The translations under genes and the position numbers were made by a program. Below, piece by piece: positions 23,774 to 62,094 of a stretch of 64,000 bases of DNA (the stretch's first letter is position 1; each line of letters begins with the position of its first letter). The notes beneath the pieces were generated by a model. That model was not told the origin of the DNA and searched no databases. It saw nothing but the letters and a program-made list of their open reading frames with translations. The stretch covers positions 59,941 through 123,940 of the forward strand of contig JAPLCP010000078.1 of assembly GCA_026392155.1 (NCBI GenBank). The letters run 5' to 3'. Source of the DNA: Armatimonadota bacterium (GTDB lineage Bacteria; Armatimonadota; Armatimonadia; Armatimonadales; Armatimonadaceae).

Positions 23774-25123
23774 TTAGGGTCTGCGCCAGAGTCCTTCCAG
23801 TGTGTCTTGTGGTTTCCAGCCCAAGAGGCGCTGCGCTTTTTCGGTGCGGCACTGGTCATGCGGAAAATCGGCGACGCAGTGAAACTCCTCGTAGGGGCTG
23901 GGTAGCGACGGTGCTTCCAGAGCGCACTTGATCGCCCGCGCCGCGTCCTGCCAGGTCAGCATCATCGCCGAGGTTCCGTGCTCGCTCACCGTGTCAGGCT
24001 GGGCGAAGCCATTGAACATGAGATTCGGAACTTCTAGGTCGTACCACTCCGCCAAGACTCGCATCGCTTCATTGCCTAAAAACTTGCTGTGGCCGTAGAG
24101 ATGCCGACCAGGCCGGGTTGGGGTATCCGAGGCAAGATGGTAGTCGTAGAGAGAGTCGTTCTCGCCGTGGAGCGTGATGAGCTGTGGCCCGGTCTGCACA
24201 ACGCGGCGAATGCCCAGTATCGCCGCCGCCTGCCCGATATTCCACGCCCCCAGCGCATTGACCGCAAACGCCCCCGCAAAGTCAGGGCGCACCACCGTGA
24301 GATTGATAATCGCGTCGCAGCCTGTACAAGCATCTGTCACAGAGCTAAGCTGGCGCACATCCAGATGCACCTCCTCATGCGGCGCGGGCAACGGACGGGC
24401 AATCGGTGCTTTGGGATCTTGCGGCTTCGCTTCGGCCAGCGGCGCGATATCGGCGAGGCGCAGTGTGTAGTGGTCTTTAAGTGCATCGGCGACGGTGCGC
24501 CCAATCGGCCCACCGGCACCTAGAACTGCCACTTTTCGAATTGCCTCTCGCGAGGCAATCGGCTCCACTGGCCCCAGAGTCTCGCGCCAGGGCTTGCCGC
24601 CGTCGGTCTCGGGCCGCCCTGGTGCCTCACCCACGTGCCGCACTACCCAAGGCTTCGTATCATTCAGAGATTGCCGTACTGCCTCGGCCGCCTCGCCTAG
24701 AGAAACCTCACCCAGCCGTAGTACCGTCACGCCCAGCCCCGTCGCACGCGCCACTTCTTGAAACGAGAGCTCGGCGAGTAGCGGCAGCAGCGTCTCTTTG
24801 TTGCGCGTGGCGCGAGGTCGCCAGTTGGTGCCCAGGTGCCAGCTCTGGGGAATCCGTGAGAAGAGCTGCATGGTCGAGATCACGACCACGCGCTTTAGCC
24901 CCACATCGGCGGCGGCGCAGGCCAGCGCGTAGCTTGCCTGAGTTGCCGCGAGAAAATCCAATGGTGGTGGCGCCCAGATCGCTGCCGTTGCGCCACTCTC
25001 CACTAAGATCGCGCCCAGCACGCTTGGGGTTGTCTCGGGTGCGCCGTAGTCGAGCTGCGGCGCTCGTGCAAAGCCGAGAACCTCATTGCAGGGCAGCGCC
25101 CCAAAGACCAGTGTACTGCTCAT
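23774..25123 (-). CDS. NAD-dependent epimerase/dehydrogenase with duplicated (degenerate + intact) Rossmann domains
   Basis: C-half KVAVLGAGGPIG, YGHSK (YxxxK); N-half VVISTMQLF...VTVLRLG lacks GxxGxxG; TAATG overlap with upstream SDR. Confidence 0.7.
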   Translation of the reverse strand: MSSTLVFGALPCNEVLGFARAPQLDYGAPETTPSVLGAILVESGATAAIWAPPPLDFLAATQASYALACAAADVGLKRVVVISTMQLFSRIPQSWHLGTNWRPRATRNKETLLPLLAELSFQEVARATGLGVTVLRLGEVSLGEAAEAVRQSLNDTKPWVVRHVGEAPGRPETDGGKPWRETLGPVEPIASREAIRKVAVLGAGGPIGRTVADALKDHYTLRLADIAPLAEAKPQDPKAPIARPLPAPHEEVHLDVRQLSSVTDACTGCDAIINLTVVRPDFAGAFAVNALGAWNIGQAAAILGIRRVVQTGPQLITLHGENDSLYDYHLASDTPTRPGRHLYGHSKFLGNEAMRVLAEWYDLEVPNLMFNGFAQPDTVSEHGTSAMMLTWQDAARAIKCALEAPSLPSPYEEFHCVADFPHDQCRTEKAQRLLGWKPQDTLEGLWRRP

Positions 25124-44219: not shown

Positions 44220-44419
44220 AATCCTACGAGCACTTTCGCATCGCAGTCTGGGTCTTTGGCATCCCCACGATTATCGCCCTCACCATCCGCGCGATCCGAA
44301 AGATGCGGGCCATCAAAAAGCGCCACGAGGAGCTACTGGAAGAGGCGGAGCGCAACCCCCAAAATCCTCATCAGGCCCTCGCGGAGCTCTATGCAGAGCC
44401 CCAGAAGCAAAGACGCTAG
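44216..44419 (+). CDS. Small single-TM hypothetical protein
   Basis: TM IAVWVFGIPTIIALTI then a charged helix; ENPQNPHQALAELY end. Confidence 0.7.
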   Translation: MESYEHFRIAVWVFGIPTIIALTIRAIRKMRAIKKRHEELLEEAERNPQNPHQALAELYAEPQKQRR

Positions 44420-45696
44420 CGAATCAGCACATCACCGGGCTTGTTTGATCTTGGTGTGACAAGCGCGGGTAGTGGATGGTCGAACTCCAGCTTGATGACC
44501 GGTGTCGTATCGGCGAGGGTATTGGTAGCCAAGCCCGTGAGCCTCAGAAAGGCTTGGTGCTCCACATGGTCGCTTGGGGTCATCTCCAGGGAAAAGGCAA
44601 CGGGCTTGCCTGTATTGAGGAGAGTGGCCCGTGCCGGGGCAATAGCAAGCGGCTTGAGCTTGATGGCGCTTCCCACCAAGTCCGTGTGGCAGATAACATA
44701 GAGCGTATTGGCTTTTCGGGTGAGTAAAACGCTCTTATTGGCCGCAAGCTCCGAGCAGGGCGTCGTGCCCTCAAACGCCTCGCGCACGGCCTTGTACCAG
44801 CGCCCTATCCGCTTGAGAATCCCCGCAGACTCCACTGGAATCGTGCCGTCGCCCTTTGGCCCGACATTGAGCAGGTAGTTGGCATCCCGCGCCCGAAACT
44901 TAGCAATCGAGCGCATCAGGTGCCGGTCGGTGTAATAGTCCTCGTTTTTTCGCCAGCTCCAGCTCTCCATCCCCACGGACTGACAGGCCTCCACGCGTCG
45001 CATAAAGTCCACTTTGCTCTCGTAGTCGCGCTCGGGGGTGCCAAAATCGCCCTCATCGTAGCCCCGGTCGTTGATCACGGCCTTGGGCTGGAGCTGACGG
45101 ATGAGTGCGTTGATGCTCGTGTCGCGGTGCAGGTCCACGTTCATGTCCCACCAGAAGCCATGGAGCTCGCCATAGTGGGTGCAAAGCTCGCGCACCTGCC
45201 CCCGCACAAACTCCGTGTAGGCCAGTAAGTCGGGGCTGTCTTCTGGCTGCGCGGGGATCTCGTGGTGCCGCCCCTGGTTGGGGTAGCTCGGGTGGTGCCA
45301 GTCCGCGATCGAGTAGTACAGACACAGCGGGAACTTGCGCCTCTGGCACGCCTCAGCGAGCAGCTTGACGATATCTTTGCCGTAGGGCGTGTTCATCGTG
45401 TTGTAGCGCGTGAGCTTCGTGTCCCAGAGGCAGAACCCATCGTGGTGCTTGGTAGTGAGGCAGAGATACTCCATCCCCGCCTCCTGCGCCAGGTCCAGCC
45501 ACGCCTCGGGACTGAACTTCGTCGGGTTCCACTGCGCCGCAAGCTTTGTGTACTGGCTGCGTGGCACCCGCCGCCTCCACTGTTCCTGCTCGTGCCAGCC
45601 ATTTATCGCGTAGAGCCCCCAGTGCACAAACATCCCGTAGCGGCGCTCAAACCACCAGTCACGTCCATCACCAAATCGCGGAACCAGGCTATTCAT
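44416..45696 (-). CDS. Alpha-L-fucosidase (GH29)
   Basis: YGMFVHWGLY, LTTKHHDGFCLW, YYSIADWHHP, FWWD nucleophile, NYLLNVGPKGDG. Confidence 0.92.
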   Translation of the reverse strand: MNSLVPRFGDGRDWWFERRYGMFVHWGLYAINGWHEQEQWRRRVPRSQYTKLAAQWNPTKFSPEAWLDLAQEAGMEYLCLTTKHHDGFCLWDTKLTRYNTMNTPYGKDIVKLLAEACQRRKFPLCLYYSIADWHHPSYPNQGRHHEIPAQPEDSPDLLAYTEFVRGQVRELCTHYGELHGFWWDMNVDLHRDTSINALIRQLQPKAVINDRGYDEGDFGTPERDYESKVDFMRRVEACQSVGMESWSWRKNEDYYTDRHLMRSIAKFRARDANYLLNVGPKGDGTIPVESAGILKRIGRWYKAVREAFEGTTPCSELAANKSVLLTRKANTLYVICHTDLVGSAIKLKPLAIAPARATLLNTGKPVAFSLEMTPSDHVEHQAFLRLTGLATNTLADTTPVIKLEFDHPLPALVTPRSNKPGDVLIR

Positions 45697-45710: not shown

Positions 45711-46754
45711 TTAAAACATCGCGTGAAGCCGCCCTAAAAGTGCCTCCGTGTCGTCCCAGCCCAGACAGGCATCCGTGACGGACTTTCCGTAGACCATCTC
45801 GGGGCTGATGCTCTGTTTCCCTCCCACTAAGTTGCTCTCGATCATCACGCCTAGGAGCGACTTATCGCCCTCTAGCCGCTGACGGCCGATCTTCTCGGCG
45901 ACAAAGGGCTGGCGCTCCGGGTCGTAGCCGGAGTTGGCATGGCTGGCATCCACGACGATACCCGGGGGCAGGCTCACTTTATCGAGACACGCTACTGCGC
46001 GGGCGACACTGACTCTATCGTAGTTGGGCTGGCTCTTCTTACCACCCCGCAGGATCAGACACACATCCGAGTTGCCCGGCGTGCGAATCACGCAGCAGCG
46101 GCCCTCTTCGTTGAAGCCCAAGTAAGAGTGCTGGCTCTGCGCCGACTGCATCGCATCCAGCGCGATCTGGAGCTCACCATCCGTGCCATTTTTGAAGCCT
46201 ACCGGCATGGGCATGCCGCTCGCCATCGCGCGGTGTGGCTGGCTCTCGGTGGTGCGGGCTCCAATCGAGCCAAACGAGATCAGATCGGCGAAGTAGTCGG
46301 GAGTCGCGGTATCTAAGAGCTCGGTGGCGACAGGCAAGCCCAGCTCCGTTATTTTGACGAGAAGCTTTCTTGCCCGGCGTAGCCCCTCGCTCATGTCGTA
46401 GGTGCCATCCAAGTGCGGATCGTTGATGAGCCCACGCCAGCCCACGGTGGTGCGTGGCTTCTCAAAGTACGTCCGCATGAGCACCACCAGCTTATCGGCG
46501 TATTTTTCCGCCAGCGGAGCGAGGCGGCGCGCGTAGTCGAGGGCGGCCTCCGGGTCGTGGATGGAGCAAGGGCCGGTGACCACGAGAAAGCGGCTGTCCT
46601 GGCGGCTCAACAAGCGCTGAATCGCCACTCGTCCCGCATTGACCGTGTGGTAGGCAGCGGCACTCACCGGAAACTCTTCCCGCAGAATCGCGGGGGCAGG
46701 AAGGACGGTGCGCACCACGGCGCGTTCATCACGTTTGTCGACAATCTGATCCAT
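45711..46754 (-). CDS. aroF: DAHP synthase, class I-alpha (AroF/G/H type)
   Basis: GPCSIHD, RTYFEKPRTTVGW, IGARTTESQPHR, GFKNGT, ILRGG, DASHANS, GKSVTDACLGW; the isoenzyme letter cannot be fixed. Confidence 0.92.
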   Translation of the reverse strand: MDQIVDKRDERAVVRTVLPAPAILREEFPVSAAAYHTVNAGRVAIQRLLSRQDSRFLVVTGPCSIHDPEAALDYARRLAPLAEKYADKLVVLMRTYFEKPRTTVGWRGLINDPHLDGTYDMSEGLRRARKLLVKITELGLPVATELLDTATPDYFADLISFGSIGARTTESQPHRAMASGMPMPVGFKNGTDGELQIALDAMQSAQSQHSYLGFNEEGRCCVIRTPGNSDVCLILRGGKKSQPNYDRVSVARAVACLDKVSLPPGIVVDASHANSGYDPERQPFVAEKIGRQRLEGDKSLLGVMIESNLVGGKQSISPEMVYGKSVTDACLGWDDTEALLGRLHAMF

Positions 46755-46771
46755 GGATTTCTTCTCTTTTC

Positions 46772-46812
46772 AAAAAACAAAAAGCCCGCTCCGGTTGTTT
46801 CCGGGCGGGCTT
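46772..46812 (-). terminator. Attenuator terminator upstream of DAHP synthase
   Basis: AAGCCCGC-CCGG-AAACAA-CCGG-A-GCGGGCTT then TTTGTTTTTT. Confidence 0.88.
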
Positions 46813-46832
46813 AGCTCTGGTGTCTGGCGACG

Positions 46833-46907
46833 CTACAAAGCAGCTTCCTCCCGGTTTGGGAAAAAGTAAAAGCTAAAATACCAAAAGCTATTGTTTGTGC
46901 GTGCCAT
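46833..46907 (-). CDS. Aromatic-amino-acid leader peptide MARTNNSFWYFSFYFFPNREEAAL
   Basis: 8 aromatic codons in 9 positions (5 Phe, 2 Tyr, 1 Trp) directly 5' of the terminator. Confidence 0.9.
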   Translation of the reverse strand: MARTNNSFWYFSFYFFPNREEAAL

Positions 46908-47000
46908 GTGTTGGGCTTACTGTATCATGCTCAGTATGGTTTTGCACGAGTCGGTGCATCGTGGAACCAGAATACTCTTTTTGTCGTCAGAATTAAAAAC

Positions 47001-48449
47001 ATGTCACTCTCGGAAATTCAGCCCAAGCGCCTTGCCCACACACTCTTCTTAGACTTTGTCGGCTACTCACGGCTCACCGCCGACTCACAGGCGGCTGTCC
47101 AAGTGGTGCTGCAAAACCTGGTCTATAATCTTCCTGCCTTTCAAGCGGCTCGCAACGACAGCCAGCTGATGGTGCGTAAGACCGGCGATGGAATGGCGGT
47201 CGTTTTCTTCCAAGACATAGAGTTCCCTCTTGCCGCTGCCGTCGCCTTGGATGAAGTGATCAAGCACCAGTCCTCAGGCCTCCGGGAGCAGGTAGGCGCA
47301 CCGTTCCGTCTGCGCATGGGGATTCACTCCGGCCCGGTTGTGATCGTGGACGAAGACGGCGATGGGATTATGGATGTGGCGGGCGAGGGCATCAATATCG
47401 CCCAGCGCGTCATGGACTGTGGCGATGAGGGGCATATTCTCGTCTCGGCTGCTGTCTTTAATGCCGTTGCCGAAAAAGAACACTGGAAGTCGCTTCTTCA
47501 CGATCTGGGGATTGTTCGGGTAAAGCACGACGAGCTGGTGCACCTCTACAACCTCACGGGGCAGCGACCCGATAGCACGATCATGGGCTTTGAGGGGCTC
47601 CCTCGTAAAGTCCACGAAGCGCGTGCTCGCATTCAGCAGCTTGTCGAACAAGAAAATAACCGAGAGCAGACCGAAAACCGTGCCACTCTCACCAACTACG
47701 CGCTCCGTGCCGCCTTGTTAGTGGGCGCTTTTGTGCTGGTCGGCAGCCTGCTTTTCCTGCTCTGGCGCAACAGTACCATCAATAGCGGTGAGGTTAAGCA
47801 CGTCGCCGAGGTCATCCGCAAGAACAAGCTCGCACAAGAAAATAAAAATAAAACAGCGCCTGCGGTCACTCTAGCAACCCCAGCTCCGACCAATCCGTCA
47901 GAGAGTGCCAGTGCGATCGTCCATGCCCGTGTCCCCAATGTCGTGGGGATGCAGCGGACGGATGCAGAGAAAGCCCTTGCAGGCTTTGGCTTGACCCTAA
48001 GCCTCTCCCCGCAGACCCCTGAGGTGGGGAACGCCACGGTTCCTGCAGGGAGTATCGTTAATCAGTCTCCGCCGCCGGGTGAGCAGAATGTCCGTGGGGG
48101 CGTTGTCTACGTCACTCTGGCCAAAGGCGCAGGCACCCCGGTAGCCCCCACGCCAGAGCCACCGCCGCAGAGTGCCTATACGGGAGTCCTCGTAGATGGG
48201 CGCAGCTTTACGCAGCTAGCCAATGCGCAGACCGCAGGGCTTTTCGGCCCCAACGACGCCCCGCTCTACTCGGCAGCGAGCATGACCAGTGACGAAGTTG
48301 AGGCCATTCAGCAAGCCGGGATCAATCCGCTTCGGCTCACCGCGATCGTGGCGGGCCCGAACGGGGTTGGTCTCTCAGCGGAGGACGTCGAAAAGCTCCG
48401 CGCCCTCCCCGAGACGATCCGCGCCAAGACCGTCATCTTGCGCCCCTAG
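47001..48449 (+). CDS. Class III nucleotide cyclase - TM - PASTA-domain protein
   Basis: LFLDFVGYS, RKTGDG, RLRMGIHSGPV, DVAGEGINIAQRV; one TM; RVPNVVGMQRTDAEKAL...GSIVNQSPPPG PASTA; start at ATG 47001. Confidence 0.85.
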   Translation: MSLSEIQPKRLAHTLFLDFVGYSRLTADSQAAVQVVLQNLVYNLPAFQAARNDSQLMVRKTGDGMAVVFFQDIEFPLAAAVALDEVIKHQSSGLREQVGAPFRLRMGIHSGPVVIVDEDGDGIMDVAGEGINIAQRVMDCGDEGHILVSAAVFNAVAEKEHWKSLLHDLGIVRVKHDELVHLYNLTGQRPDSTIMGFEGLPRKVHEARARIQQLVEQENNREQTENRATLTNYALRAALLVGAFVLVGSLLFLLWRNSTINSGEVKHVAEVIRKNKLAQENKNKTAPAVTLATPAPTNPSESASAIVHARVPNVVGMQRTDAEKALAGFGLTLSLSPQTPEVGNATVPAGSIVNQSPPPGEQNVRGGVVYVTLAKGAGTPVAPTPEPPPQSAYTGVLVDGRSFTQLANAQTAGLFGPNDAPLYSAASMTSDEVEAIQQAGINPLRLTAIVAGPNGVGLSAEDVEKLRALPETIRAKTVILRP

Positions 48450-59526: not shown

Positions 59527-62094
59527 GTGAAACAAACCAACGCTTTCCCCTTCACTCTCCCCTGGGACGATTCCAGTGCAACGGCTACCAGTGTGGCCTC
59601 TCTCAACCCTGCGCCGCTGACGGTGCAGCAGAAGCTCACGGCTAAGAACGGGCATTTCTACGACGCGACGGGGAGGCGAGTGCGCTTTGTGGGCGTGAAT
59701 ATTGGGGCGGCAGCGGCGTTTCCGAGCAAGGCGGATGCACCGAAGATTGCGGCTCGGCTTCATAAGTACGGCGTGAATTTAGTTCGGCTGCACCACATGG
59801 ACGCGCAGTGGGCGACGCCGAATATTTTTAACAGCAAGGGCAACTACACCAAGACCACATCACTTGACCCGATTAGCCTGGATCTATTGGAGTTCTTTAT
59901 CGCCCAGCTCAAAAAGAACGGCATCTATGTCGATCTTAATCTCCATGTCTCGCGCGAGTGGCTTCCCGGTGATGGCTTTCCCCTCACCAAAGAAAAACTC
60001 CCTGAGCTTGGCAAGGTGGTTGCGTACTTTCATCCACGGGCCATCGAGCTGCAAAAGCAGTTCGCGACCCAGATACTTACCCATAAAAATCCCTACACGG
60101 GCCTGCCGCTGGCGCTGGATCCGGTATTAGCCTTAGTGGAGCTGAACAATGAGGACTCTCTGATCGGCTCTGCGGGCCAAGCGGCGGCCCTTCCCGCCGC
60201 GCTCCGCAAGCCCCTGGAAGCGGGCTGGCAGGCGTATTTGCGCAAGAAGTACCTCAACACCGTGACACTACGACAAGCCTGGAACACGGGGCTGTCACTG
60301 GGAGTGGAGCAGCTCAAGCGTGATGTCGCCGCATGGACCGCCGAGACCCATGAGAAAACGCAGCTGGAGCTCGCCTCCGTCAGTGTCGCGGGACAGACCA
60401 ATGCGCCGGGTGGCCCGGTGTTGCATGTCAGAAAACTAAAGAACGACGGCACAAACTGGCACCTTCAGCTTCACCAGACCGGCCTGACACTAGAGACGGG
60501 CAAGACCTACACGGTCTCGTTTGTCGCACGGGCAGCGGCACCGCGGACGGTCTATGTCAATGCCCGCCTCGACCAAGCCCCGTGGAGCATGGTCGGGCTC
60601 GACACGAGCATCGGCCTAGGCATTGCCTGGAAACGCTACAGCTTCACCTTTATCGCCAATGGCAATGTCGTTCCGGGCCACTGTCGCCTCTCACTCATGG
60701 TCGGCGATAGCGATGCGGATATCTATCTAGGCGAGTGGAGCCTTCGTCCCGGCGGAGGCGGCTTGCAGTTTGTCTCAGGCCAGAGCCTTGAGGCGGGGAC
60801 GATCGAGCTGGGGCAGATCAGCGGCTCGAACTCCGGCGTGGACTACACGCACTATCTCATGACGGTGGAAGATACCTACTGTCGGACGATGAAAGCGGCA
60901 GTTCTTGCGACAGGCTGCACGGCGTCCATTGCCTGCTCTCAAGCCAGCTACGGCGGTATGGCAGGGGTCTACCGGGAGTCCAAGCTCGACTGGGTGGACA
61001 TGCATGCCTACTGGCAGCACCCCAACTTCCCCGGCTCGGCCTTCGATCCCAACAACTTCCAGATCGAGAACACTCCCATGACGGCCAGCGCGGGCGCAGG
61101 GGTTCTGGACGGCCTTGCGATGCACCGTGTGCAGGGCAAGCCCTTCACCGTCAGCGAGTACGACCATCCGGCCCCGAGTGAGTATAGCGCCGAGCTGACT
61201 CCCCTGATCTTTGCCTACGCCGCCTGGCAGGACTGGGATGGCGTCTTTCTCTTCGCCTACGAAACCGTGCAGAGCGATAAGATCACCGGCTTTTTCGATC
61301 AGCAGCTTCACCCCGCCAAGCTCGGCTTTCTCCCTGCCGCCGCCGCGCTGTTTCTGCGAGGTGATCTTGCTCCCGCACCCAATGCCATTGAGCTCACCGT
61401 CCCTAAAAGCAAAGTCGCTGGCCTGAAAGCACTCGGCACGGACTACGCCTTTTGGGGGCTTTCGGAGACGCGATTTGTTCAAGGCAGCCTCAAGAGTGCC
61501 CCCGAAAAAATCGAGTCGAAGACTTTTCTGAACCACCGTGCGGCGATTCGTTTTGAAGAAGACCAAGGCCCCCTTGCGCTCGTGGTGCAGAACCTCAAGC
61601 CGCTGCAAGAGAGCATTGACCCTGGTTTTGTCTGGGATCATGGAGCGCAGCAGGTTCGTGTTAGCTCCCCTGCCTCCAAGGCGCTCATTGGCAAGCTGGG
61701 AGGCAAGGCAAACCGTGTGAGGGGGTTTGTGGCGGAAGTGGCCGCTTCCAAGCGCAACTTTGCGGTGCTCACCCTGACCGCACGCGACGGCAAACCGACC
61801 GAGCTGTCGCGCTCACTTTTGCTGACGGCGCTGGACAAGGCAGAAAATCCGGGCATGAAGTGGAACGCGGATCGGACCTATGCGGCGGATGCCTGGAAGT
61901 CTGGCCCGACACAGCTCGAAGTCCCGACAGCGACCGTTCAGATTGCGACAAAAGCACAGAAAGCGACGGTCTGGGCGCTTGAGGGCACTGGCAAGCGTCG
62001 CCAAGAAGTTCCTGCGACACTAGAGAACGGTACCCTCACTCTCGCGATTGGCCCTGAGCACCAGACTCTCTGGTACGAGATTGAGACGGCCTAG
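59527..62094 (+). CDS. GH-A clan (GH5-like) glycoside hydrolase with inserted CBM4/9-like module
   Basis: RFVGVN, NLVRLHH, ELNNE (acid/base), HAYWQHP, TVSEY (nucleophile); WHLQLHQ...GKTYTVSF...WKRYSFTF CBM; promoter TTGACG-17-GATAAT 6 nt before GTG 59527. Confidence 0.8.
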   Translation: MKQTNAFPFTLPWDDSSATATSVASLNPAPLTVQQKLTAKNGHFYDATGRRVRFVGVNIGAAAAFPSKADAPKIAARLHKYGVNLVRLHHMDAQWATPNIFNSKGNYTKTTSLDPISLDLLEFFIAQLKKNGIYVDLNLHVSREWLPGDGFPLTKEKLPELGKVVAYFHPRAIELQKQFATQILTHKNPYTGLPLALDPVLALVELNNEDSLIGSAGQAAALPAALRKPLEAGWQAYLRKKYLNTVTLRQAWNTGLSLGVEQLKRDVAAWTAETHEKTQLELASVSVAGQTNAPGGPVLHVRKLKNDGTNWHLQLHQTGLTLETGKTYTVSFVARAAAPRTVYVNARLDQAPWSMVGLDTSIGLGIAWKRYSFTFIANGNVVPGHCRLSLMVGDSDADIYLGEWSLRPGGGGLQFVSGQSLEAGTIELGQISGSNSGVDYTHYLMTVEDTYCRTMKAAVLATGCTASIACSQASYGGMAGVYRESKLDWVDMHAYWQHPNFPGSAFDPNNFQIENTPMTASAGAGVLDGLAMHRVQGKPFTVSEYDHPAPSEYSAELTPLIFAYAAWQDWDGVFLFAYETVQSDKITGFFDQQLHPAKLGFLPAAAALFLRGDLAPAPNAIELTVPKSKVAGLKALGTDYAFWGLSETRFVQGSLKSAPEKIESKTFLNHRAAIRFEEDQGPLALVVQNLKPLQESIDPGFVWDHGAQQVRVSSPASKALIGKLGGKANRVRGFVAEVAASKRNFAVLTLTARDGKPTELSRSLLLTALDKAENPGMKWNADRTYAADAWKSGPTQLEVPTATVQIATKAQKATVWALEGTGKRRQEVPATLENGTLTLAIGPEHQTLWYEIETA

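Follow-up and report, generated by a model that had tools for sequence, protein, structure and literature searches.

A predicted aromatic leader-peptide attenuator upstream of a class I-alpha DAHP synthase gene in Armatimonas (Armatimonadota)

Introduction

Some attenuators of Escherichia coli monitor more than one end product of a branched pathway through the codons of a single leader; thrL (Thr and Ile) and ilvL (Ile, Leu and Val) are examples. For DAHP synthase itself, the closest described system is aroR-aroF of Corynebacterium glutamicum, in which the enzyme is controlled by attenuation through an aromatic leader peptide, as reported by Neshat et al. 2014 (summarised in PMC11802643) and predicted in PMC4046766. 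That organism has two DAHP synthases, of which the aroF product is one (PMC4046766). The control codons of aroR read Phe-Tyr-Phe, and limitation of Phe raised aroF transcription while the availability of Tyr was without effect (PMC11802643).

Here we describe a leader located upstream of an aroG-type DAHP synthase gene in a genome of the genus Armatimonas. The analysed window is a stretch of 64,000 nucleotides (positions 59,941 to 123,940 of contig JAPLCP010000078.1, assembly GCA_026392155.1), and coordinates without a contig name refer to it. We consider that the locus is a classical ribosome-mediated transcription attenuator, with a probability of about 85%. The mechanism is a textbook one that already has a direct precedent at DAHP synthase in C. 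glutamicum; the leader is new for Armatimonadota and uncatalogued. No published attenuator in Armatimonadetes was found in a literature search that reached a minority of subscription journals. The leader would thus represent the first concrete cis-regulatory mechanism found for amino-acid biosynthesis in Armatimonadota, which are poorly studied and have few cultured species.

Results and Discussion

An aromatic-rich ORF and a terminator upstream of aroG

The following elements are located on the minus strand:

46833..46907, minus strand: leader ORF MARTNNSFWYFSFYFFPNREEAAL; length, frame and stop (TAG/TAA) are kept in six genomes of the genus
46860..46886, minus strand: control codons 8-16 of the leader ORF, UUU UGG UAU UUU AGC UUU UAC UUU UUC (F W Y F S F Y F F)
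46769..46783, minus strand: U-rich tract UUUUUGUUUUUUG after the terminator stem; a T-run is found in all six genus sequences
45711..46754, minus strand: AroG/F/H-type (class I-alpha) DAHP synthase, 347 aa (PF00793, 254 bits; TIGR00034 aroFGH, 455 bits)

The leader ORF (46907-46833) begins with an ATG at 46907 and comprises 24 codons followed by TAG (46835-46833). The original prediction, a 24-aa ORF with five Phe, two Tyr and one Trp codons within nine positions, was correct in its coordinates and description; the ninth codon of the run encodes Ser, so that eight of the nine codons are aromatic. Such runs are exceptional: in six-frame translation of the 4.77-Mb assembly (~9.5 million codon positions), only two 9-residue windows contain eight or more aromatic residues. 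The other one (G000:C73:~24620-24655, plus strand) is a TTCTAC/TTCAAT simple repeat that reads FYFYFNFYF in one frame. It was rejected as a leader: it lacks a start codon, has no cognate gene, and lies antisense in the gap between two minus-strand genes. Because this repeat is the sole other window of the kind in the genome, the aromatic run of the leader is beyond what chance would produce.

A G+C-rich hairpin starts 20 nt past the leader stop. Its 12-bp stem (-22.6 to -23.0 kcal/mol) is formed by the 5′ arm AAGCCCGCCCGG (46812-46801) and the 3′ arm CCGGAGCGGGCUU (46794-46782), separated by a 6-nt loop (46800-46795), and is followed by the U-rich sequence UUUGUUUUUUG, which reaches ~46771. 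The strong terminator that had been proposed to follow the ORF is therefore present, as a hairpin of about -23 kcal/mol with a T-run. The stem together with UUUUUGUUUUUU lies ~15-25 nt ahead of the aroG ATG. Hairpins followed by a T-run number ~1008 genome-wide on both strands, or about one per 9.5 kb per strand; the count after long ORFs (156 vs 106) is a weak test of enrichment.

The protein encoded by the downstream gene scores below the AroG- and AroH-specific cut-offs, and we refer to the gene as aroG for brevity. A gene for an alpha-L-fucosidase (PF01120; window 44416-45696, minus strand) starts 14 nt past the aroG stop and may be co-transcribed. This neighbour is kept solely in the closest relative (L082), which makes the arrangement probably a recent one.

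Competing helices in the leader RNA

The leader RNA can be divided into segments as follows:

46858..46866, minus strand: segment 1, CUUUUUCCC, which overlaps the final two Phe codons and provides the 5′ arm of the 1:2 anti-antiterminator hairpin
46836..46854, minus strand: segment 2, CCGGGAGGAAGCUGCUUUG, partner of either segment 1 or segment 3
46801..46822, minus strand: segment 3, CACCAGAGCUAAGCCCGCCCGG, forms the antiterminator with segment 2; its last 12 nt (46812-46801) are the terminator 5′ arm
46782..46794, minus strand: segment 4, CCGGAGCGGGCUU, terminator 3′ arm; 3:4 hairpin of -22.6 to -23.0 kcal/mol
46825..46842, minus strand: 3′ strand of a closing helix, pairing with the first leader codons (46906-46893) in untranslated RNA

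Folding of the alternative structures, a check proposed along with the original prediction, recovered 1:2, 2:3 and 3:4 as competing helices. The first of them (CUUUUUCCC with GGGAGGAAG, -11.3 kcal/mol) uses the last Phe codons as its 5′ strand. The 2:3 helix pairs 46854-46836 with 46822-46801 (CCGGG-A-GG-AA-GCU-GCUUUG with C-CAGAGC-UA-AGC-CC-G-CCCGG; -24.0 kcal/mol) and uses up the 5′ arm of the terminator. An antiterminator at this place had been proposed and does exist, but the pairing as written was too short and differed slightly from the -24.0 kcal/mol helix. The three helices are mutually exclusive, and 2:3 (-24.0 kcal/mol) and 3:4 (-23 kcal/mol) are about equally stable. Folding of the whole free leader yields z = -5.4 relative to shuffled controls. 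The closing helix is present in the minimum free energy structure of the free leader, as well as in four of five genus relatives; a ribosome moving along the leader ORF would have to break it, suggesting a role for this helix in the switch.

The locus therefore possesses the features of a classical attenuator: a leader ORF, a cluster of cognate codons, an intrinsic terminator, an exclusive antiterminator and an anti-antiterminator placed on the control codons. A further expected feature, dependence of the fold on ribosome position, is seen in an equilibrium model of the nascent RNA only.

Ribosome position and antiterminator formation

In this model, we considered the transcript before segment 4 exists, blocked everything up to the leading edge of the ribosome, and calculated at equilibrium the probability of segment 3 being held by segment 2, denoted P(antiterminator). 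With no ribosome, the nascent RNA gives P(antiterminator) = 0.01, and the 1:2 hairpin forms with a probability of 0.84. With the A site on codons 8-14, P(antiterminator) rises to 0.76-0.80; on codons 15-16 it is 0.63 falling to 0.22, and from codon 17 to the stop it is ~0. The aromatic run therefore fills, in the model, almost exactly those ribosome positions that favour read-through. Equilibrium folding of the full-length RNA with a stalled ribosome was uninformative for a kinetic switch and was set aside in favour of the nascent-transcript model: the terminator persists at every stall position (P ~0.9-0.97). Since the terminator always wins at full-length equilibrium, read-through would have to be kinetic, as in classical attenuators.

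We propose the following mechanism. Transcription would start a few bases ahead of the 24-codon leader ORF, judging from the putative promoter described below. When aromatic aminoacyl-tRNAs are plentiful, the ribosome would reach the stop codon and cover segment 2, so that the 3:4 hairpin and the U-tract terminate transcription and aroG stays off. When a cognate tRNA is scarce, the ribosome would stall within F8-W9-Y10-F11-S12-F13-Y14-F15-F16, occupying segment 1 and the closing helix; segment 2 would then be free to capture the emerging segment 3, no terminator would form, and RNA polymerase would enter aroG. Without translation, 1:2 and 3:4 should form together, leading to termination. Actual termination and stalling, as well as the identity of the amino acids among Phe, Tyr and Trp that would modulate read-through, are what we infer from this scheme.

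Conservation of the leader in Armatimonas and Armatimonadaceae

The CarB half of the source genome shares 94-96% identity with its counterparts in named Armatimonas MAGs. A 24-codon ORF with an aromatic run occupies the same place in all six Armatimonas genomes, the five other ORFs following the pattern MA(R/H)(P/T)(T/P)(N/T)GYWYFSF(Y/T)FFP(N/I)R(D/G)GA(V/A)(V/L). Codons 9-13 are invariant in the genus, UGG included; elsewhere F and Y, as well as UUU and UUC, replace each other, and one Y is changed to T. The stop codon is TAG or TAA, and the DNA upstream of the -10 element diverges freely. With a translatable ATG...TAG frame whose reading frame, length and stop are kept in six genomes, the leader ORF is predicted to be translated. 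All five relatives also retain the 1:2, 2:3 and 3:4 alternatives, with energies of -9.7 to -10.8 kcal/mol for the equivalent of 1:2 and -20.6 to -29.3 kcal/mol for 2:3. The helices vary little within the genus; the lower helix of 2:3 shifts in register, and there is no column-by-column co-variation.

Conservation extends beyond the genus. AroG is 52-67% identical in the rest of the family, and an in-frame run of F, Y and W codons is present at 17 of 21 Armatimonadaceae loci, representing eight of the nine genera that possess the gene. The survival of the aromatic codons in relatives, on which the original prediction had been staked, is thus observed both in the genus (six of six genomes) and across genera. 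Each of these leader runs holds at least one Trp, and the peptides are otherwise unalike (for example, ...KFYFYYFWFPQ..., ...FFYFFWFYYFY... and ...YYFNYLFFWFYY...). At 12 of 13 loci examined in divergent genera, we found both a hairpin with a T-run and a segment behind the aromatic run that is complementary to the terminator arm of the same locus; in three genera these segments pair with their own 5′ arms as CAGGAGCAG/CUGCUCCU, CCGGGCGCAGG/CCUGCCCGG and CAGGGGCAG/CUGCCCCG. Across genera, matched segment 2/3 duplexes average -17.1 kcal/mol vs -13.9 kcal/mol for mismatched ones, a value reached in 5 of 5000 permutations; the difference, 3 kcal/mol, is modest, and z-scores are weak at some of the loci (-0.7 to -1.4). 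The proposed placement of a trp/pheA-type attenuator before DAHP synthase is supported by the layout of the locus, by the stall model and by conservation in relatives.

The one genus without the leader (g6; loci L086-L088) has neither a conserved aromatic ORF nor a terminator, and is placed in the AroG tree as the closest sister group of Armatimonas. A mini-ORF found there (MINFGSFFKHWF...) was rejected as a leader, as it is not conserved among the three genomes and no terminator follows it. The aroG gene of g6 is placed ~110 nt behind a carB half-gene, and the attenuator was apparently lost following the move of aroG behind carB. No aromatic leader ORF was detected at any of the 19 aroG loci that represent three other families of Armatimonadota, nor in the outgroup phyla that are nearest in the AroG tree. 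The sister family possesses the gene in one of 16 sampled genomes.

Putative promoter, translation start and entry into aroG

Two putative promoter elements precede the leader ORF:

46942..46947, minus strand: putative -35 hexamer GTGCAA, 17 nt upstream of the -10 element; recurs in three of six genus members
46919..46927, minus strand: putative extended -10 element TGaTACAGT; TA[C/G]A[G/C]T in all six genus sequences, with diverging flanks

The extended -10 element has the genus consensus TGnTA[C/G]A[G/C]T and ends 11 nt ahead of the leader ATG; GTGCAA was not called as a -35 element by a simple sigma-70 scan. From the position of the putative -10 element, the 5′ untranslated region of the leader transcript would be only ~4-5 nt long. 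Genome-wide, the motif TANNNT is sharply peaked 6 nt before start codons (356 vs a background of ~60), which indicates that leaderless mRNAs make up a large share of the messages of this genome.

No Shine-Dalgarno sequence precedes the leader ATG, and the Phe codons also serve as the pyrimidine strand of the 1:2 hairpin. Both observations would fit a mini-ORF that is neither translated nor sensed, its U-rich codons being a structural by-product and the hairpin acting as a constitutive partial terminator or as a switch operated by a protein or a small RNA. We consider this improbable. Translation from leaderless or nearly leaderless messages is the norm in this genome, and frame, start and stop are kept in the genus in spite of the TAG-to-TAA change and of swaps between F and Y and between UUU and UUC. 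Moreover, divergent genera with unrelated nucleotide sequences always present an in-frame F/Y/W run. The RNA also matches no riboswitch, T-box or other Rfam family: T-box and riboswitch models gave no hit to 46600-47100 even at E ≤ 10, and the Rfam gathering score was reached by nothing on the window or at the loci of 20 relatives. We thus retain the translated leader of a classical attenuator as the preferred reading.

The relation of the terminator to aroG bears on another possibility, namely that the ORF and the terminator form a unit of their own, specifying a small aromatic peptide that is itself functional, and that aroG is transcribed independently. The length of the ORF, kept in the genus, and the strong terminator after it are compatible with such a peptide. 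However, only ~15-25 nt separate the U-tract from the aroG ATG, and this gap contains no -10-like hexamer (TANNNT) at the spacing that is usual for leaderless genes of this genome; aroG transcription must therefore pass through the terminator. In addition, the peptides of different genera show no conservation beyond the aromatic run, and ORFs of this kind were found solely before aroG-type genes, in unrelated phyla included. A functional peptide is accordingly very improbable, and attenuation of aroG remains the reading that we follow below.

A separate trpE leader, a second DAHP synthase and the question of specificity

We scanned the genome for short ORFs with runs of one or a few amino acids followed by terminators. 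Besides the aroG leader, a single candidate held: a trp-type leader, MQMRKLVQWWWRTGACPVRAVC, in which three Trp codons stand in tandem (WWW), located outside the window (G000:C122:23642-23818; locus L188:343-518, plus strand) upstream of trpE, which encodes a 527-aa anthranilate synthase component I (PF00425, PF04715). Short ORFs rich in Leu, Thr, His, Arg or Pro before hairpins were rejected, their downstream ORFs being unrelated or absent. The trp leader contains a strong hairpin, CAGGCUCCCG...CGGGAGCCUG, followed by the T-run UUUUAUUUUG, 14 nt before trpE. Its RNA also carries a 34-nt tandem duplication (GAAGAGAGGCAGGCTCCCGAGTTAAGACAACCGG, twice), which may supply an alternative pairing partner. 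The Rfam Trp_leader model did not match this leader, and nothing else in Rfam reached its gathering score on it. With a 7-nt spacing, its message would be essentially leaderless too. The trpE leader makes leader-peptide attenuation plausible in this organism and corroborates the notion that, in Armatimonadota, such attenuation would work from leaderless or nearly leaderless mRNAs.

The WWW leader before trpE means that Trp is served by a separate, dedicated attenuator at the branch point, and this raises the question of which amino acids the aroG leader senses. From the codon content, the conservation of Trp in the family and the stall model, we give roughly even odds to a response to all three. 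Under the competing possibility, the attenuator is real but responds in effect to Phe-tRNA alone, or perhaps also to Tyr-tRNA; its one Trp codon would have no measurable influence, with Trp left to the trpE leader. Five Phe codons against a single Trp codon speak for this restricted response, as does the position of W9 upstream of segment 1: a ribosome halted there leaves 1:2 uncovered, and this hairpin could form first kinetically. In C. glutamicum, likewise, aroR is reported to be affected by Phe limitation only (PMC11802643). Against it, every Armatimonadaceae leader contains at least one Trp codon in spite of the rarity of this residue, the UGG codon does not vary within the genus, and a stall at W9 gives P(antiterminator) = 0.78 in the equilibrium nascent-RNA model. 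We therefore regard restriction to Phe and Tyr as rather unlikely. If the leader does respond to Phe, Tyr and Trp alike, scarcity of any one of them would be signalled by a single ribosome translating the nearly leaderless message of 24 codons.

The genome encodes a second DAHP synthase of a different class:

G000:C87:40357-41193, plus strand: class I-beta DAHP synthase, 278 aa (NF006421, 424 bits; TIGR01361, 380 bits)

The corresponding gene is located ~19 kb before the start of the window and overlaps the end of a hisC-like aminotransferase gene. The enzyme consists of the catalytic domain only (profile positions 65-335 of 338), lacking an N-terminal regulatory domain. No leader was detected in the ~60 nt of intergenic DNA upstream. 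The third PF00793 protein of the genome is KdsA, and no class II DAHP synthase is encoded in it. The original prediction had placed one leader at the entry step of the shikimate pathway; because a leaderless class I-beta enzyme is present, the leader fronts one of two DAHP synthases and does not gate the entry step as a whole. This arrangement predicts that a regulated class I-alpha and a leaderless class I-beta DAHP synthase divide the labour between them.

Similar leaders in other lineages

An aromatic leader before DAHP synthase is not unique to Armatimonas: in addition to the C. glutamicum precedent, look-alikes are common in Burkholderiales and Micrococcales. Among the Burkholderiales (within loci L006-L074), 38 aroG-type loci from Comamonadaceae and Sphaerotilaceae have a similar leader ORF (e.g., MTSAKFYFAYFWFSSATGGREIFA). 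The F/Y/W run is 7-9 codons long in these ORFs and usually includes one Trp; a terminator with a U-tract was found at all 38 loci, and segments 2 and 3 are complementary (median z = -2.4). They share the downstream gene family with the Armatimonas leader, but belong to a separate AroG clade and have unrelated nucleotide sequences. On these leaders, too, the gathering score was reached by none of the Rfam families. No published description of aroG leaders in Betaproteobacteria turned up in the literature search, which covered the lesser part of subscription journals.

Six Micrococcales loci from Arthrobacter, Paenarthrobacter and Microbacterium (L030, L055, L063, L077, L078 and L080) carry MTKRWYAYFSLALEGPASN; a conserved 19-codon ORF of the form MT(K/N/T)RWYAYF(S/E)(L/S)ALEGPA(S/P)(N/I) is located ~100-200 nt upstream of the aroG-type genes. 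The scan for a hairpin with a T-run returned no terminator at these six loci. The read-out may thus differ in Micrococcales, being Rho-dependent or translational.

In the AroG tree, the leader-bearing groups of Armatimonadaceae, Burkholderiales and Micrococcales form separate clades with leaderless lineages between them. Transfer of the gene together with its leader from Burkholderiales was rejected, since AroG of Armatimonadaceae forms a clade of its own whose nearest outgroups are leaderless. The tree favours, without proving, an origin independent of the actinobacterial leaders. The aromatic run before DAHP synthase occurs in at least three unrelated AroG clades. Rfam has no family for it, and the annotation of many genomes would gain from a curated model.

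A more ambitious interpretation can be placed on these data. We speculate that the Armatimonas leader is an independently evolved and truly trivalent sensor that drives a "boost" isozyme, with the class I-beta enzyme providing basal flux, and that it forms, together with the leaders from Burkholderiales and Micrococcales, a large, uncatalogued class of multivalent aromatic attenuators at the shikimate pathway entry that was invented repeatedly. We hold this interpretation as tentative, at somewhat less than even odds.

Comparison with known attenuators

The closest counterpart remains aroR-aroF of C. glutamicum. Both systems place a short ORF with aromatic codons directly upstream of a gene for one of two DAHP synthase isozymes. 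In C. glutamicum, ribosome stalling raises aroF expression, and the same logic is proposed for the Armatimonas leader. Unlike the Phe-Tyr-Phe described for aroR, the Armatimonas run extends over nine codons, with five Phe, two Tyr and one Trp. The Armatimonas (Armatimonadota) leader also has a canonical hairpin and U-tract, whereas none was found in the six look-alikes from Micrococcales (Actinomycetota).

The anatomy resembles that of the E. coli pheL-pheA and pheM-pheST leaders, with a Phe run overlapping segment 1, alternative 1:2, 2:3 and 3:4 helices and an intrinsic terminator. The Rfam Phe_leader model (RF01859) aligns with the Armatimonas leader over its positions 1-125 of 125 in cmscan, at 23.0 bits and E = 0.16; with a gathering score of 55, the leader is not a member of this family. 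The target differs from those of the pheA and pheST leaders, being DAHP synthase and not chorismate mutase-prephenate dehydratase or PheRS. Unlike the E. coli Phe leaders, the control codons of Armatimonas are a mixture of Phe, Tyr and Trp, and the mRNA is probably nearly leaderless.

As in E. coli trpL-trpEDCBA, competing hairpins would be read by a translating ribosome. The Trp_leader model (RF00513) gives 18.1 bits and E = 0.49 against a gathering score of 41, so that the leader does not belong to this family either. In contrast to trpL, it contains one Trp codon among eight aromatic codons, and trpE of the same genome has its separate WWW leader. Finally, the use of one leader with codons for several end products recalls thrL and ilvL, but the pathway is another one, and the three aromatic products share only the common trunk enzyme.
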